From positions 1 to 40,826 of IMG/VR virus record IMGVR_UViG_3300033494_000004: a DNA stretch of 40,826 nucleotides; one strand, given 5' to 3'. Every line of letters begins with the position of its first letter. The stretch's first letter is position 1. The notes beneath the pieces are model-generated. The model saw only the letters and a list, made by a program, of their open reading frames with translations, did no database searches and had not been told where the DNA came from. This document shows, one piece after another, positions 6,008-20,122 of this stretch. Made by a program: the position numbers and the translations under genes. This DNA comes from a virus (Duplodnaviria; Caudoviricetes).

Positions 6008-6304
6008 ATGAAAACAATATTAGAATACCATAGTCCAGCCAATATAGATGTAGTGACAGAAACAGGATTTAGATACCTAAATACCAATCCTATTTTTCAA
6101 TATACAAAAGAAATAGAAGGTTCAAATGACATAGATATTTTTGAACAATTTTATAAGCTAAATAATAGCATTAGGTATTGTAATGACCATTCTTATAAGT
6201 TTCAAGATATAGAATGGACTAATAAATATAAAGAATGGTTGAGTTCAGAAGATTATAAAAAGAAATCTTTTCAATTATATTATGGTAATGGTATAGTAGA
6301 TTAA
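6008..6304 (+). CDS. hypothetical protein
   Basis: ORF track; packing. Confidence 0.7.
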   Translation: MKTILEYHSPANIDVVTETGFRYLNTNPIFQYTKEIEGSNDIDIFEQFYKLNNSIRYCNDHSYKFQDIEWTNKYKEWLSSEDYKKKSFQLYYGNGIVD

Positions 6305-6335: not shown

Positions 6336-6610
6336 ACATTTCTACTATACTTAAATGTATAAATTTTTATTAGAGGATATAGGCTTGAAAGTAGCCATTA
6401 TTTAAAGAGTTAGCCCATACTACCCTGTGCATTAAAGACTATTGGTAACAGATAGAGACTCAAGTTGCAAGGAATAAATAGAGGAGTTTAGGTTAATTAC
6501 CTAATAATATTATTGTCATACTTAGTAGGTAAAAATGAACCCTACATTTAATCAATACTATTAAAGCTATTTGGTGTAACAACACACTTTAATAAAAATT
6601 GTAGAAATGT
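6336..6610 (+). ncRNA. structured RNA mimicking 23S rRNA H43/H44 (L11-binding, GTPase-associated centre) with an inserted domain
   Basis: AGGATATAGGCTTGAAAGTAGCCATTATTTAAAGAGT (6374-6410) and GTGTAACAACACACT (6574-6588) align to 23S nt 1054-1090 and 1091-1105; closing stems 6362-6375/6587-6600 and 6336-6345/6601-6610. Confidence 0.8.
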
Positions 6611-6629: not shown

Positions 6630-6899
6630 ATGAAACCAATTAAAAAACCTTGTAAAGATTGTCCATATTTAAAAACTAATATTGATGATAATTTTTATAC
6701 ATTAGGATTGAACTATGATAATATATTAGATTTTTTTGATGGTAATCCATTGCACTCTTGTCATAAAATAGGATTTTCAATTGATAATACAGAATCTAAA
6801 ATAGGATGCAAAGGAAGTGTCTTATTTCAACAAAAAATCAAAGGATTAGAAAATGATACTATAAAATCTTTTGATGAAATGCTAATTAAATACAATTAA
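6630..6899 (+). CDS. putative Zn-binding hypothetical protein
   Basis: PCKDCPY ... HSCHK ... CKG pattern. Confidence 0.7.
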   Translation: MKPIKKPCKDCPYLKTNIDDNFYTLGLNYDNILDFFDGNPLHSCHKIGFSIDNTESKIGCKGSVLFQQKIKGLENDTIKSFDEMLIKYN

Positions 6900-14874: not shown

Positions 14875-15007
14875 AAAAGTATTTTTATTTGAACTTCTTA
14901 ATGCTCGTGTAATCGGTTCGACTAATAAAGTTAGATTTAGTAGAAGTATTAATGTATATGCATATTTAATATTTTTTACTAATCGTATGATAAAATTTTC
15001 AAAATGA
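14849..15007 (+). CDS. array micro-ORF 2 (52 aa, GSTNK subfamily)
   Basis: MTSTKNIDKKVFLFEL...IGSTNKVRFS. Confidence 0.7.
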   Translation: MTSTKNIDKKVFLFELLNARVIGSTNKVRFSRSINVYAYLIFFTNRMIKFSK

Positions 15008-15165
15008 AAGTCACAAAACATATAGATAAAAAATTATTTATACAAGAACTTATGACATATACTGACCTTGGGTCAACTAATAAAGTAAGGTTTAGTGTAT
15101 TTATTTATAAATATAAAATTAAAATAACTTACAGGTATTTTGATAAACCTGTAGAATTTTACTAG
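15004..15165 (+). CDS. array micro-ORF 3 (53 aa, GSTNK subfamily)
   Basis: MKVTKHIDKKLFIQEL...LGSTNKVRFS; ATGA overlap. Confidence 0.7.
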   Translation: MKVTKHIDKKLFIQELMTYTDLGSTNKVRFSVFIYKYKIKITYRYFDKPVEFY

Positions 15166-15201
15166 TAGTAGACATCATTATAAATTTAAAGTTATACATA
15201 A

Positions 15202-15354
15202 ATGAAAGCTAAAAAACAAGATCAAAAAAAATATTTTATTAAAAAAAGAAGTATTCGTATTTACAAAACATTTAAATGTACCAAACATTGTATTAGAAAT
15301 AATGAATATATTTTTGAGTTTGATATAAAGTTTAAAAACAATGATCACAACTAA
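15202..15354 (+). CDS. array micro-ORF 4 (50 aa)
   Basis: MKAKKQDQKKYFIK... Confidence 0.6.
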   Translation: MKAKKQDQKKYFIKKRSIRIYKTFKCTKHCIRNNEYIFEFDIKFKNNDHN

Positions 15355-15448
15355 ATTACATAATAAAATAAAATATAAAGCAGAACTATTTAGATGTATT
15401 ATAATATCTATTGATACTATTTGTTATACTGATAAAATTAATTTATAG
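15341..15448 (+). CDS. array micro-ORF 5 (35 aa, possibly frameshift-truncated)
   Basis: MITTKLHNKIKYK...YTDKINL*; 14-nt overlap with the previous ORF. Confidence 0.5.
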   Translation: MITTKLHNKIKYKAELFRCIIISIDTICYTDKINL

Positions 15449-15488
15449 AGTAATTATATGGAAATTCCTAACTGGGGTGACACAATTT

Positions 15489-15641
15489 ATGAAATCAAAA
15501 AAATTAAGTGAAAAAATGGAATTTAAAAATGAATTGTCATTTAGAGATCTTTACTATATGATTGGTAGTACAAATAAAGTTCAGTTTTCTAGACTTGTAA
15601 ATGTATATTGTTTTAGAATGCGTTTTACAACTGAAAATTAA
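15489..15641 (+). CDS. array micro-ORF 6 (50 aa, GSTNK subfamily)
   Basis: MKSKKLSEKMEFK...IGSTNKVQFSRLVNVY. Confidence 0.7.
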   Translation: MKSKKLSEKMEFKNELSFRDLYYMIGSTNKVQFSRLVNVYCFRMRFTTEN

Positions 15642-15642
15642 T

Positions 15643-15801
15643 ATGAGATGTACTAAATTATATGAAAAATTATCTATTAAATATCATTTAATACATAGTT
15701 TAAAACCATCATTTACGTTTGCTATACTTACATTTACTTCCCATTGTGATCACGATGTAATTATTTCAGATGGTAGAATTAGATTAAAAAGAAGTTTATG
15801 A
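15643..15801 (+). CDS. array micro-ORF 7 (52 aa)
   Basis: MRCTKLYEKLSIK... Confidence 0.6.
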   Translation: MRCTKLYEKLSIKYHLIHSLKPSFTFAILTFTSHCDHDVIISDGRIRLKRSL

Positions 15802-15932
15802 GAATATATAAACAAGTAGGTAAACAAATGTTTATTAAAGAATATCCATTTCTTCGTAAGTATTATTATTATTTTGTTTTTAAAAATGGTATATTACAAA
15901 TTTATAGTTTAAAAGATAATGATAACATTTAA
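15798..15932 (+). CDS. array micro-ORF 8 (44 aa)
   Basis: MRIYKQVGKQMFIK...; ATGA overlap. Confidence 0.6.
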   Translation: MRIYKQVGKQMFIKEYPFLRKYYYYFVFKNGILQIYSLKDNDNI

Positions 15933-16050
15933 ACACAATTATAAAGAAAATTTTAAAGTAGATTGGCTTGATAGGCGATCAATTAGAATGTGTGGAATAC
16001 TAACTGCTTTAAATGTAAGACAGTTTTATTATACCAACTTATACGCATGA
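15919..16050 (+). CDS. array micro-ORF 9 (43 aa)
   Basis: MITFKHNYKENFK...; 14-nt overlap. Confidence 0.6.
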   Translation: MITFKHNYKENFKVDWLDRRSIRMCGILTALNVRQFYYTNLYA

Positions 16051-16169
16051 AAACTTATAAACTTAAATTCAAATTATGGATTGCATATTATGCCATTAAT
16101 GATTATTACATGCTTTCAAATGTAAAAGATTCTGTAATTAGTATACAAATTAAATATGAGAACTTATAA
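16047..16169 (+). CDS. array micro-ORF 10 (40 aa)
   Basis: MKTYKLKFKLW...; ATGA overlap. Confidence 0.6.
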   Translation: MKTYKLKFKLWIAYYAINDYYMLSNVKDSVISIQIKYENL

Positions 16170-16299
16170 ACTTTATGATAAAATAGATTATAAAAAACAC
16201 TTATGTCATGATTATTATTTAAAATTAAATAATATAGAAAGTAGTTTAGTTATTCAAGAGTATTACAAATTTCTAATTAATAAAAATGAGAGCATTTAA
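16156..16299 (+). CDS. array micro-ORF 11 (47 aa)
   Basis: MRTYKLYDKIDYK...; 14-nt overlap. Confidence 0.6.
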   Translation: MRTYKLYDKIDYKKHLCHDYYLKLNNIESSLVIQEYYKFLINKNESI

Positions 16300-16423
16300 A
16301 ATAAAATACAAGTTACGTACTAAGAAAATATTATGTAAATTCAAAAAAATAAGTATAATGTATGATGAGTCAGATATTACTGGTGTAAAAATTAGACAAA
16401 AAGCATATTTAATGGAAATATGA
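16286..16423 (+). CDS. array micro-ORF 12 (45 aa)
   Basis: MRAFKIKYKLRTK...; 14-nt overlap. Confidence 0.6.
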   Translation: MRAFKIKYKLRTKKILCKFKKISIMYDESDITGVKIRQKAYLMEI

Positions 16424-16566
16424 AAGTAACAAAATTAACTTCTAAGTTAAAATTTGATAAATTATTATTTATCAAACATACTTGGATCTCAAGTTCTATT
16501 GTTAAAATTCACATTAGGATTATTGATGATACAGAGATAATTAAATTTAAAATTTATAAAAGATGA
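16420..16566 (+). CDS. array micro-ORF 13 (48 aa)
   Basis: MKVTKLTSKLKFDK...; ATGA overlap. Confidence 0.6.
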   Translation: MKVTKLTSKLKFDKLLFIKHTWISSSIVKIHIRIIDDTEIIKFKIYKR

Positions 16567-16703
16567 GAAAATTTAAATCATATTACAAATTAGGTTGGAA
16601 GATTAGAGTAATACTCAAGATGAAAGTTATTTTGACAGGTATTGAACGACCATTTAAATTTGATCAATTACTTCATGACTTAAAATTAATCAATGAAAAA
16701 TGA
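16563..16703 (+). CDS. array micro-ORF 14 (46 aa)
   Basis: MRKFKSYYKLGWK...; ATGA overlap. Confidence 0.6.
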   Translation: MRKFKSYYKLGWKIRVILKMKVILTGIERPFKFDQLLHDLKLINEK

Positions 16704-16846
16704 GAACTTATAAATTAACTCATAAACACGTATTTTATGTAACATGGATAAGTGGTAACAATCAGTATATCATTCGTAAACAGTGGATGAAAGGAAGAAG
16801 TAAGTCAATGCAGGACGATTATATATTTAATATTATTTTTCAATAA
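16700..16846 (+). CDS. array micro-ORF 15 (48 aa)
   Basis: MRTYKLTHKHVFYVTW...; paralog of micro-ORF 16. Confidence 0.65.
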   Translation: MRTYKLTHKHVFYVTWISGNNQYIIRKQWMKGRSKSMQDDYIFNIIFQ

Positions 16847-16849
16847 CAA

Positions 16850-16990
16850 ATGAGAATATTTAAATTAACTTATAAACAAATATTTTATAAAGATTGGTTA
16901 AAGCGTTATAAGGTATTTAAAAATAGCAAAAAATGGATGTCACGTAAGGTTATATCAATTCAAGAGGATTTTATACATGAAAACATTTAA
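16850..16990 (+). CDS. array micro-ORF 16 (46 aa)
   Basis: MRIFKLTYKQIFYKDW...KWM..K..SIQEDFI. Confidence 0.65.
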   Translation: MRIFKLTYKQIFYKDWLKRYKVFKNSKKWMSRKVISIQEDFIHENI

Positions 16991-17117
16991 ATTAAATTAT
17001 AAAATATTTATGAAATACATTTATTGTGGTGATAAGTTCGATTATTATATGATATCTAGTTATGAGTTTATTGGTGAATCTCAACATCGATATGTATTAT
17101 TAATAAAAAAGAAATAA
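16977..17117 (+). CDS. array micro-ORF 17 (46 aa)
   Basis: MKTFKLNYKIFMK...; 14-nt overlap. Confidence 0.6.
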   Translation: MKTFKLNYKIFMKYIYCGDKFDYYMISSYEFIGESQHRYVLLIKKK

Positions 17118-17263
17118 TGCGAACTTATAAAAACTATTATAAAATAAAATGTATGTCAGAACATACTATATATACTACTTTGAATCGTAAAATTATTTAT
17201 TGTATTCATGAATTATCTTATAGATTATCTAAATTACCTAAAATAAATTATCTCAAATTATGA
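17117..17263 (+). CDS. array micro-ORF 18 (48 aa)
   Basis: MRTYKNYYKIKC...; TAATG overlap; its stop overlaps ATG 17260. Confidence 0.6.
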   Translation: MRTYKNYYKIKCMSEHTIYTTLNRKIIYCIHELSYRLSKLPKINYLKL

Positions 17264-17907
17264 AACAGAATCACATTGAATCTATTATTAAATTAATAGA
17301 AGTATGTAGAGGTCTTACCAAAGACGAATTATCAGATTTAATGAACTTATTACATGGAAGTGAAGAAACATTCACTCCAGATCAAATGAGATCATTACCA
17401 AGTAAAAGTGCTCTTGTAGAGGTAGTACAGAGTAACGAATTTAGACCAACAAATAGAAAGGTCAATATTTATAAACTTAAAGATTTAGATTTGAAAAAAC
17501 ATTTAATTAATGTAACAGATTTAGATCCAGAACAATTAATTAACAAAGAAACTGAAATGCTTAAACAATTATTTGGGTATAACCCTAAAACAATTACTCC
17601 TGTGGTAACTAATACTAAAGAAATAGAAAGAACATACGTTAATGGAAAAGGTGATAATATGTGTACTATTACTGTAAAATTACAGTTGAAAGATACCTTA
17701 ACAGTTACTCATGCTTTGATTACATATAGAAAAGGTAGATATGGTAATTATAGATCTATTTCAGAGGAAATTAACGATGAAATGAAAGCCAATGATATGA
17801 AAGGTCTATTAGCTCGCAGAGTAGCAAATTGCCATTCTATTTTAGATAATGCAGTAACTAATGTAATGCCATTTGAATTTAATACTGTAGAATCAGATCA
17901 CGAATGA
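17260..17907 (+). CDS. hypothetical protein upstream of DNA polymerase
   Basis: 215-aa ORF with ATGA overlaps at both ends. Confidence 0.8.
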   Translation: MKQNHIESIIKLIEVCRGLTKDELSDLMNLLHGSEETFTPDQMRSLPSKSALVEVVQSNEFRPTNRKVNIYKLKDLDLKKHLINVTDLDPEQLINKETEMLKQLFGYNPKTITPVVTNTKEIERTYVNGKGDNMCTITVKLQLKDTLTVTHALITYRKGRYGNYRSISEEINDEMKANDMKGLLARRVANCHSILDNAVTNVMPFEFNTVESDHE

Positions 17908-20122
17908 TAGTATACGATTTAGAGGTATACCAAAATTTATTTTTATTTGTAGGTTATCATACAGAAAAAGATAAAACTATTATAGTAGAACTATCATCTA
18001 GAAAATGGGAATCTGATTTATTAATAGAATTAGCTAAATATTGTTATAATCAACAATTGCCTTTAGTTGGCTTTAATAATTTAAATTATGATGGTCCAAT
18101 GCTCGAATATATTTTATCACTTTTAATAAATTCCAATTTAAGTAATGATAAAATATTAAGTAAAGTAAAATCAAAATCAGATGAACTAGTAACTTCTAAA
18201 TCTAAATATCCTCCTAAATATAATCTAGGTATACCTCAAATTGATTTAATGAGGATAAATAGATTTGATGTACAAATGATCAGTTTAAAATACTTAATGT
18301 TTGCATTACGAGTATTAAATGTTCAAGAGTTACCATTTCATCATACTGCTGTATTAACTGATGAAGAAATTGATGTTGTTATAAATTATTGTAAAAATGA
18401 TATTACTACAACTATAAAACTATATGAAAGTTCAAAAGATAAAATTGATATGAGAAATCAATTGAATTTAGAATATAGTAAAAATTTTATAACAAAAGAC
18501 GATGCTCAGTTAGGTGAAGAAATATTTCTTTTAGAATTAGAGAAAGAAATGGATTGTGAAAGAAATAACTTTAAAAAAGTGGATAAAGGAATTTTGATTT
18601 CTTTTAAAGATTTAATATTTGATTATATAAAATTTGAATCTAAAGAATTTAATTTACTTTTAAATTGGTTAAAAGATGTTCAAACTATAGAAATAAAAGG
18701 TTGTTTAAATAGTTTAGAATATGAAAAATTAAAATCATTAGAAGGATATTATAAAGAAAAAAAAGTAAAAGGAAAACAAGATTACTTTAACATATTATAT
18801 AAAGGAAATGAAATAGTATATGGAGTGGGTGGCGTACATTTTTCTACTGAAGGATCGTTTATTTCTGATGATGAAAATATGATATTAGATGTAGATGTAG
18901 AAGCAATGTACCCTAGTTTATCTATCTCAAATCAATTTTATCCGTCTCAATTTGGATTAAGTTTTTGTAATGTGTATTCAAATTTAAAAGAAAAGCGTAA
19001 GTCTTATCCTAAGACTAATCCTTTAAATACAGCTATAAAATTAAGTATGAACTCTGTTTTATAAAAAGCAGCTTTGCGAAGCGATTCGCATTGAAAAATC
19101 GGGAGAATTAGGTGGAACTCTTAAATAAGACAATACCTAACCGAGCTTAGATGGGAATCTAAGAAGGTGTAGAGACTAATGATATACCACAAGACCTGTG
19201 ATGAAATCAACACGAGAACCCGACATCTTATATTATAAGATGATGATATAGTCCGAGCTATATGGTGACATATAGAACTAAATTTTAAATGAATTTAGGA
19301 TAACAACCCTGATACGGAAAAACTCAATCTGAATACAGTAAACTATTTGACCCTTCATACACATTAAAAACAACTTTGAATGGTCAACTAGTATTAACAA
19401 TGTTAATTGAGCAACTTAGTACTATAGATCATTTAAAAGTATTACAAATTAATACTGATGGCTCTACTATAATGTTTAATAGAAATGATTATAACAAAGT
19501 AGTTGAAATATGTAATAAATGGGAAAATCAAGTAAATTTAAAGTTAGAATACAATGAGTATAGTAAGATGTTTATATCTAATGTAAATAATTATATCTCG
19601 CAATATACTAACGGAAAAGTTAAATTAAAAGGTGCGTTTGAAATAGATCGAGGATTAGTTAAAGATCATTCTATGTTAATTGTACCAAAGGCAGCTAAAG
19701 CATACTTTATAGATAATATAAAACCAGAAGATTTTATATTATTTCATGATGATATATTTGATTTCTTTTTAGCAGTAAATGTTAAATCAAAAGAACATCA
19801 GTTATGGGAAGGTGAGTTAATAACAGAACAAATACCATCTAAAATAAAAAATAGATTTAAAACAATAGTTAGATTTGAAAAAGAAAGAAGATTACAAAAA
19901 GTAACTAGATATTTAGTAACTAAACAAGGTAAAACATTCATGAAAATAATGCCACCATTAGCTGGTAAAGATTCAATCAGAGAATCAAATATTCATGTTG
20001 ATTACTTATGTACTGAATGTAATAATTTAACAAATGTAAACTTACATTCTTTATTTAAATTAATAAACTATGATTTTTACATCAAAGAAACTTATAAACT
20101 TATAAATTCAATTAATAAATAA
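17904..20122 (+). CDS. polB: family B DNA polymerase, join(17904..19057,19312..20122), 654 aa after splicing
   Basis: ExoI YDLE, ExoII GFNNLNYD, ExoIII YCKND; motif A DVEAMYPS; motif B K-LSMNSV|YGK restored by splicing; motif C INTDG. Confidence 0.9.
19058..19311 (+). ncRNA. group I intron (IA2-like), no internal ORF, 254 nt
   Basis: Exon ends in U; P1 CUGU/GCAG with U.G wobble; P7 GACUA 19174-19178/UAGUC 19249-19253; P3 UCGGG/CCCGA; P8 CAUCUUAUA/UAUAAGAUG; P9 CUAUAUG-GUGA-CAUAUAG; terminal G at 19311. Confidence 0.92.

Follow-up and report, generated by a model that had tools for sequence, protein, structure and literature searches.

The locus and its parts

The window, meaning the whole stretch of DNA analysed, is an entire virus record of 40,826 bases with replication genes of phage type, namely helicases, a primase, a DNA polymerase, a ribonucleotide reductase and a dUTPase. 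The reductase is 42–44% identical to enzymes of Flavobacterium, Myxococcus and Cellulophaga phages, a similarity that would point weakly to a Bacteroidota host. Between the ORFs at 6008–6304 and 6630–6899 lies an intergenic element of 275 bases (6336–6610), likely a non-coding RNA; its ends are predicted to come together and form, apart from any ribosome, a copy of the rRNA domain that binds uL11 and meets the translation factors. The 382-aa protein encoded upstream gave no family and no usable Atlas match, and a tRNA gene search of the 40,826-base window found none. The element is composed of the following parts:

6336–6345, plus strand: 5' strand of the outer closing stem, 10 bp with 6601–6610, not rRNA-like
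6362–6373, plus strand: 5' strand of the inner closing stem, pairing with 6589–6600 and replacing the top of H42
6374–6410, plus strand: copy of 23S 1054–1090, with H43, the 1082–1086 junction loop and the 5' strand of H44
6411–6569, plus strand: structured insert at 1090/1091, with a 4-bp closing helix (6411–6414 with 6566–6569) and three predicted arms
6570–6573, plus strand: conserved 4-nt linker back to G1091, three U followed by a purine
6574–6588, plus strand: copy of 23S 1091–1105, with the H44 hairpin and its 3' strand
6589–6610, plus strand: 3' strands of the inner (6589–6600) and outer (6601–6610) closing stems

The closing stems, read directly, comprise 14 stacked pairs (6362–6375 with 6587–6600) and 10 pairs (6336–6345 with 6601–6610). 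A preliminary description of this DNA had given both as non-rRNA stems of 14 and 10 bp; both stems are present, but within the inner one the label applies to 12 pairs, the other two being the rRNA pairs 1054-1105 and 1055-1104. The rRNA-like halves lie 163 nt apart. Folding of the element gives a z-score of -3.49, none of 200 shuffles being equally stable, and a scan for promoters and terminators returned 9 signals against 8.6 expected, with no terminator.

Elsewhere in the window, 19058–19311 (plus strand) is likely a group I intron splitting the DNA polymerase gene. The ORFs on either side (17904–19064 and 19376–20122) both match phrog_1252, group I-like core words occur at 19171 and 19246, and removal of 19058–19311 restores a polymerase motif, K-x3-NS-x-YG; Rfam gave no match to this segment. 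At 15004–17263 (plus strand), 16 tandem ORFs of 35–53 aa follow each other with overlapping stops and starts, most of them beginning with M-R/K-x-F/Y-K and diverging beyond the start.

Resemblance to 23S rRNA

With E. coli rrlB as the reference, window positions 6374–6408 are identical to 23S 1054–1088 at 29 of 35 sites and 6574–6588 to 1091–1105 at 11 of 15, which bears out the initial proposal that 6374–6410 and 6574–6588 reproduce 1054–1090 and 1091–1105. The best ungapped score (29/37) falls at 6374, the runner-up in the window being 23 and the best on the reverse strand 21; the highest score among 200 shuffled windows was 26/37, reached once. Relative to E. coli, paired differences are found at G1059A with C1079U, C1092U with G1099A, and A1090U with U1101A, and others at C1072U, A1067G, U1097C, U1061A, G1068A and A1089G, so that every difference named beforehand (1059/1079, 1092/1099, 1072, 1067 and 1097) is seen. 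All 13 native pairs tested in H43, H44 and the top of H42 are canonical in the window, among them the compensated pairs 1059-1079, 1092-1099 and 1090-1101. The A at 1061 corresponds to the laboratory variant U1061A, described as more stable in Mg2+ (PMC6239185).

That an Rfam family might already cover the element had been raised at the outset; the comparison gave no match over it at the gathering threshold or at E values up to 10, and none on 7 and 20 further loci. The 23S model RF02541 does not match the element, against about 3000 bits for the true 23S rRNA in two of the loci compared, and the rRNA-like domain is flanked by a non-rRNA stem rather than by continuing rRNA; by these two features the element is not a 23S rRNA gene or fragment. 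The preliminary description had also taken G1067 and C1097 as a match to Bacteroidota. In the phylum sampled, that of an Ignavibacteriota-titled genome, 9 of 26 rRNAs have the two together, but each of the 26 has an extra base before 1078 that is absent from the window, and both bases are common in the phage family described below (G1067 in 20/100 members, C1097 in 50/100); they are therefore not diagnostic of the host.

Extent of the phage family

The window element is one member of a large phage RNA family, of which 169 distinct members were assembled in two sets (100 in set 1 and 69 in set 2). Intergenic copies were found by blastn in the cultured large phages ME3, XaC1, GAP32, fHe-Yen9-04 and fHe-Yen9-03, and further in CBB, RSP15, pf16, UNO-G1W1, Astolliot, Milchi, Aeromonas 4_4572, XacN1 and 15 Lak records, CBB, Milchi and fHe-Yen9-03 being known as carriers from blastn match rows alone. 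Pattern scans of viral contigs gave 73 loci, and 119 among the roughly 300 stretches listed (some of them chance matches); a scan for the C1082-G1086 form gave 120 among the roughly 130 listed. Set 1 consists of 114 unique interrupted elements, reduced to 100 by removal of rows more than 92% alike, and leaves out loci without a recognisable 3' half (33 distinct rows, part of which were recovered afterwards; they comprised short loci and uninterrupted forms as well as true rRNA and chance matches). Three loci that escaped its search expression (L205, L206 and L208) were read by eye. For set 2, 101 of the 120 loci were retained and 19 dropped, leaving 82 unique elements and 69 after the same filter. 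Throughout both sets the insert keeps its position at 1090/1091, and its length ranges from 27 to 400 nt.

Among 185,579 prokaryote species genomes, the pattern for the interrupted form gave four matches, all true or misassembled rRNA; this pattern covers members with A1054 and U1082-A1086 alone, and hence limits cellular copies without excluding them. Matches in Paenibacillus phage Pd_22F and in two Staphylococcus phage records were rejected as true 23S rRNA, and one in a Stenotrophomonas plasmid as true rRNA. A metagenome scan for the window's own subfamily found nothing besides a single contig of the same length as the window (L272), and all sampled words of the element are present in two microbial-mat runs, from which it may derive. 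Wastewater relatives carry an element about 95% identical with different flanks, and in a freshwater relative (runs X5 and X6) the gene at 6008–6304 is missing and the 382-aa gene directly joins the element.

Several loci depart from the common architecture. Uninterrupted stand-alone domains with non-rRNA flanks occur in L064, L121, L310, L313 and L344, the first having A1091-U1100 and sitting just upstream of a DUF2828 gene. The Lak megaphages carry a worn long member (Lak-A2, L205, 2500–2915) with the pairs 1064-1074 and 1091-1100 flipped, its loops changed and a degenerate sarcin-ricin loop. The likewise uninterrupted copies in L034, L061 and L065, again with non-rRNA flanks, still include a small number of H42 bases; possibly they mark where prophages attach within 23S rRNA.

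Covariation across the insert

The tertiary contacts of the domain include 1072.(1092-1099), 1082.1086 and 1060.1088. In the family, the positions 1062–1064, 1073–1077, 1081–1088 (including A1088), 1093, 1098 and 1101 were fixed by the search patterns. Among pairs in set 1, 1058-1080 is canonical in 100/100 members (UA 37, GC 36, AU 23, CG 3, GU 1), 1054-1105 in 99/100 and 1092-1099 in 100/100 (CG 60, UA 36, UG 4), and the flanking stem pairs u1–u7/d1–d7, which covary across the family, in 76–92 of 100. In set 2, 1058-1080 is canonical in 69/69 and 1057-1081 is either AU (56) or CG (13). Position 1072 equals 1092 in 99 members of set 1 (CC 60, UU 39) and in 69/69 of set 2, or 168/169 combined. 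The insert separates 1072 from 1092, which means that both halves are selected to fold together.

In a tree built from the cores, 9 changes fall at 1072, 10 at 1092 and 10 on the pair, against 42 for the control of 1072 with 1058; restricted to supported branches, only four independent pairs remain, with 3.9 changes in the same direction and none in the opposite one, which does not reach significance (p 0.125). The pairs 1064-1074, 1082-1086 and 1057-1081 were found flipped in loci retrieved through the sarcin-ricin loop, the H43 pair 1064-1074 flipping in L284, L287, L288 and L300. Sets with U1082-A1086 and with C1082-G1086 both exist, each selected by its own pattern. Where 1101 was left free, it is A in 53/53 interrupted rows and U in 5/5 uninterrupted ones. 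These data support the view that the element is a free-standing, selected copy of the H43-H44 fold. The initial suggestion that the fold is under selection was thereby extended to the whole family, and a decayed rRNA scrap is excluded because the pairs covary.

Conservation of the uL11 face and drift of the factor-contact loops

Binding of uL11 requires the tertiary fold of the domain (PMC6239185), and the C-terminal domain of the protein contacts 1058–1060, 1062–1065, 1075–1083 and 1088 (PMC1802607). Those positions of this face that were free of the search patterns are kept throughout the family: U1060 in 169/169 members, G1059-C1079 in 163/169 and U1078 in 156/169. The loops that contact translation factors were compared with 39 true 23S sequences (of 60 loci fetched, 45 fitted the pattern; surplus copies were then removed and three records added), in which 1061, 1068, 1069, 1070 and 1095 are invariant. 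In set 1 of the phage family, 1061 is not U in 58/100 members, 1068 is A in 30, 1070 is G in 20, 1067 varies in 22 and 1095 is not A in 13; all six loop bases (1067–1070, 1095 and 1096) are kept in 33. The window itself has G1067 and A1068, and so departs from the invariant factor-contact set.

Selection on the RNA is stronger for the fold and the uL11 face than for factor contact, and uL11 is the best supported of the putative partners that the preliminary description listed. For uL10, also on that list, binding is unlikely, as the RNA has no lower part of H42. Direct mimicry of the site read by translational GTPases is weakened for the window member, since its loops drift and the sarcin-ricin loop is absent.

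A kept uL11 face with drifting factor loops is the pattern to be expected if uL11 were the sole reader. The RNA might then drain free or exchanging uL11, leaving uL11-poor ribosomes with blunted RelA activation and altered termination. The reduction of some inserts to 27 nt fits such a role, as does the need for uL11 in RelA activation and (p)ppGpp synthesis (PMC13448080). Most ribosomes, however, predate infection and hold their uL11 bound, so the RNA would have to rival ribosome number within one lytic cycle, and bulk removal of uL11 leaves unexplained the sarcin-ricin loop found in long members and in a cyanobacterial plasmid (see below). This explanation is rather unlikely.

The insert, the linker and the sarcin-ricin loop

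The helix closing the insert is canonical at its successive pairs in 98, 98 and 93 of 100 members of set 1; in set 2, these pairs served to select the 3' half and provide no test. Among close relatives, 5/5 substitutions at predicted paired insert sites keep a G-U pair. The linker, which lay outside the selection of set 2, reads UUUG in 54 and UUUA in 7 of its 69 members, with a final purine in 69/69; an alternative pairing of the linker with 1083–1086 shows no compensation when 1086 is G, and is neither supported nor excluded. Subfamilies of inserts keep motifs of their own (19, 10 and 8 of 100), and no core is common to all inserts. The subfamily of 10 (L012, L019, L090, L093, L102, L160, L170, L172, L209 and L211) is marked by a conserved small hairpin, itself interrupted by an internal loop, that immediately precedes the insert-closing helix.

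Inserts of some members hold the second rRNA element of the factor-binding site. The sarcin-ricin 12-mer, with at most one mismatch, occurs in 9/100 inserts of set 1 against 0.1 expected and in 5/69 of set 2, or 14/169 altogether; these inserts are 301–363 nt long and present the loop on a covarying stem. The other 155/169 inserts are without it, including that of the window, where the best candidate has four mismatches. A scan anchored on the loop gave 30 viral loci, all lying in such an RNA, 25 of them with both halves by strict match; four more, read individually, have divergent halves. Other rRNA pieces sought in the inserts (H62, H38 and H69-like words) were not clearly above shuffles. 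A different arrangement is found in the Dolichospermum plasmid pAfl69 (L423, 1938–2056), where a sarcin-ricin loop precedes, on the 5' side, a uL11 domain that has no insert and shows U1072/U1092-A1099 and A1090-U1101. This cyanobacterial plasmid provides a second, independently built joining of the same two elements. The domain lies near genes annotated as HEPN domain and ThiF.

The joining of both factor-docking elements of rRNA in these 14 members, in the other order on the plasmid, together with the confinement of all 30 loop-anchored viral loci to such RNAs, could mean that the RNA holds or activates a translational GTPase (EF-G, EF-Tu, IF2, BipA or LepA) away from the ribosome. Yet most members are without the loop, positions 1067 and 1095 vary (22 and 13 of 100), and elongation factors would be both abundant and needed by the phage, so that a modulator of this kind seems decidedly improbable.

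Genomic context and RNA-library contigs

A tRNA gene lies on the same strand within 1.1 kb of the element in 60/100 loci and within 150 nt in 42, with none antisense; in the context of these 100 loci, 15 of which are short, the tRNA is often 8–20 nt from the RNA, and in phages pf16 and UNO-G1W1 the RNA occupies a slot between two tRNA genes. Such a setting points to an RNA that stands alone and would be freed by tRNA processing. No neighbouring protein is common to the loci (the largest cluster covers 5/100), the downstream genes are unrelated or are tRNAs, and a uL11 gene was found in 0/50 carrier genomes. Because of the tRNA-array context and the lack of a shared neighbour protein or of a uL11 gene in carriers, the RNA would act in trans. 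Near three loci (L075, L087 and L122), tRNA genes called Pyl or SeC, with stop-codon anticodons, lie less than 600 nt from the element; as regards stop-codon recoding, translation table 11 suits the window (0.83 coverage), and a test over the loci was swamped by tRNA regions.

A role proposed for phage tRNA arrays is to make good the loss of host tRNAs to defence nucleases. By analogy, an RNA sitting in such arrays, with its fold kept while its loops drift, might serve as a spare part that docks on ribosomes with a cut or modified stalk base and restores factor binding, the loops having drifted to escape the toxin. This is very improbable: the RNA has its own closing stem and is without lower H42, no conserved arm is complementary to 23S or 16S rRNA (the single antisense match is to E. 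coli only), and the mimic does not track the host, gammaproteobacterial phages having G1089-U1090 where E. coli has A-A.

Two Ro60-like gene families recur among carriers, DUF2828 in 22/50 genomes and TROVE in 4/50, never both; DUF2828 adjoins the RNA in four loci (L031, L041, L049 and L064). It is conceivable, if unlikely, that uL11 merely folds or protects the RNA as a scaffold while the variable insert does the work, possibly with a phage Ro60-like protein in the manner of Y RNAs. The constancy of the insert position, closing helix and linker and the retention of subfamily motifs would agree with this, but neither gene is present in 24/50 carriers, DUF2828 is missing from 11/23 near-complete virus carrier records, and the 40.8-kb window, a partial contig, has no such gene. 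Moreover, DUF2828 homologues occur in 710 phage records, some annotated as Ro-like RNA-binding protein, a number far above that of the cultured carriers found; the inserts have no common core, and YrlA gives no match. The link between DUF2828 and the RNA may be one of shared residence in tRNA regions.

In RNA libraries of five studies, contigs of close relatives touch the element, although such contigs cannot show transcription, strand, level or ends, and uncovered flanks are uninformative since the relatives have other flanks. In contigs from X8, X9 and X6 the insert is still present, and six RNA runs gave no sequence joined across it, these being relatives' contigs, which drop rare forms. 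Two short X8 contigs share a start near 6351, one of them with adapter letters, which is a hint at most.

These contigs bear on a group of three readings: an intron whose removal would leave the domain uninterrupted, a leader regulating in cis, and a remnant of captured rRNA. The insert starts after U and ends in G in 85/100 members, as group I introns do, and uninterrupted stand-alone forms exist. On the other hand, inserts of 27–49 nt are too short for a ribozyme, 15/100 end in A, the insert ends pair and covary, and the insert is retained in the contigs from X8, X9 and X6; a cis-acting leader does not fit downstream genes that are unrelated or tRNAs, and the covariation excludes decay of a remnant. 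All three are disfavoured, to the point of being scarcely credible.

Comparison with known systems

The closest known system is the GTPase-associated centre itself (the top of H42 with H43 and H44, E. coli 1051–1108, known as the 58–60-nt domain that binds uL11 and thiostrepton). The two share sequence (29/35 and 11/15), native pairs, an invariant U1060 and covarying tertiary partners at 1072/1092-1099 and 1082/1086. Unlike the centre, the phage element stands free in phage DNA with its own stem and an insert of 27–400 nt at 1090/1091, its U1090-A1101 replaces U-U or A-U, its loop bases are relaxed and lower H42 is missing.

RNAs imitating rRNA sites to bind a ribosomal protein are known from the L10, L1, S15 and S8 leaders. 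Imitation of such a site is also predicted here, but those leaders are bacterial, loose mimics acting in cis on their own operons, whereas the phage element is a homologous whole domain, with no ribosomal-protein gene adjacent and uL11 in none of the 50 carriers. Y RNAs (YrlA, RF02553) with Ro60/Rsr resemble it in being self-closed and in lying in tRNA regions, a Ro60-like gene being present in 26/50 carriers; the phage element differs in having no RF02553 match and no tRNA-like domain, and 24/50 carriers are without the gene. GOLLD and ROOL are likewise structured non-coding RNAs of phage tRNA arrays, but the element is smaller, is built on an rRNA domain and has no Rfam match. Intervening sequences and group I introns interrupt 23S rRNA genes and, like the insert, can place a helical segment within an rRNA domain; in contrast, the element lies outside an rRNA gene, has no ribozyme core and retains its insert in RNA-library contigs, and inserts down to 27 nt, the terminal A in 15/100 and the missing Rfam match all differ from group I introns. 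By the features tested, the element would work like the GTPase-associated centre, but the classes of rRNA gene, ribosomal-protein leader, intron and YrlA-type Y RNA do not fit it.

As the preliminary description had supposed, no earlier account was found, the search covering Rfam and the literature outside subscription journals and bioRxiv supplements. The available text of PMC10085705 and PMC10690425 does not mention the element, and the largest supplements of the latter may hold an unnamed candidate. It is a real and widespread kind of viral RNA, apparently an undescribed one.

A possible decoy for a host protein

It is likely that the RNA is made, folds and binds host uL11. Beyond this, the reading preferred here, at a probability of roughly 40%, is that of a uL11-bound decoy for a scarce host protein, of defence or of the stress response, whose point of docking or attack is the factor-binding site. 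The phage RNA would be transcribed and cut out as a stable RNA, would fold into the uL11 domain and bind host uL11, and the uL11-RNA complex would serve as a decoy away from the ribosome, engaging a host protein of low copy number and so keeping translation running during infection. Candidate targets would be a ribosome-directed defence enzyme or RelA. Three points favour a decoy: the association of the family with tRNAs, the joining of both factor-binding elements on two occasions, and the numbers, since a scarce enzyme could be tied up by far fewer RNA copies than would be needed to drain uL11 from all ribosomes. Expressed otherwise and held with the same tentativeness, phages may encode a miniature factor-binding centre inhibiting a class of enzymes that attack the 23S stalk base, or RelA; the sarcin-ricin loop grafted at 1090/1091 would be the ancestral form, and the targeted class of anti-phage enzymes is hypothetical.

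The toxin Tre23 modifies H44 at 1095–1098 and left purified 23S rRNA and idle ribosomes unmodified (PMC8661411), and the stringent response restricts T7, a T7 protein blocking RelA/SpoT (PMC13483052). Both target classes therefore have a precedent. Several observations speak against a decoy. A faithful one should keep the exposed loops, yet only 33/100 members keep all six bases; 155/169 inserts, the window's included, are without the sarcin-ricin loop; the only known H44 toxin ignores purified 23S rRNA and idle ribosomes, and an anti-phage enzyme attacking H43-H44 was not found in the literature searched; and a decoy role does not explain why insert and linker are retained. The drifting loops and the missing sarcin-ricin loop in most members favour a plain uL11 sponge or a scaffold.

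Significance

A free-standing, trans-acting copy of a functional centre of the ribosome would constitute a new class of viral RNA. The family is frequent among the large lytic phages of several bacterial phyla, cultured phages with harmless laboratory hosts among them. The family amounts to a natural mutagenesis of the uL11 domain, which separates the needs of the fold from those of translation factors and demonstrates the tolerance of H44 for a large graft at 1090/1091. The partner that the RNA binds would point either to as yet unrecognised defences against phages that act on the ribosome or to a new means by which the stringent response is silenced. If the reading as a miniature factor-binding centre is true, the RNA would represent a new kind of counter-defence and, at the same time, a bait revealing the host systems against which it is directed.
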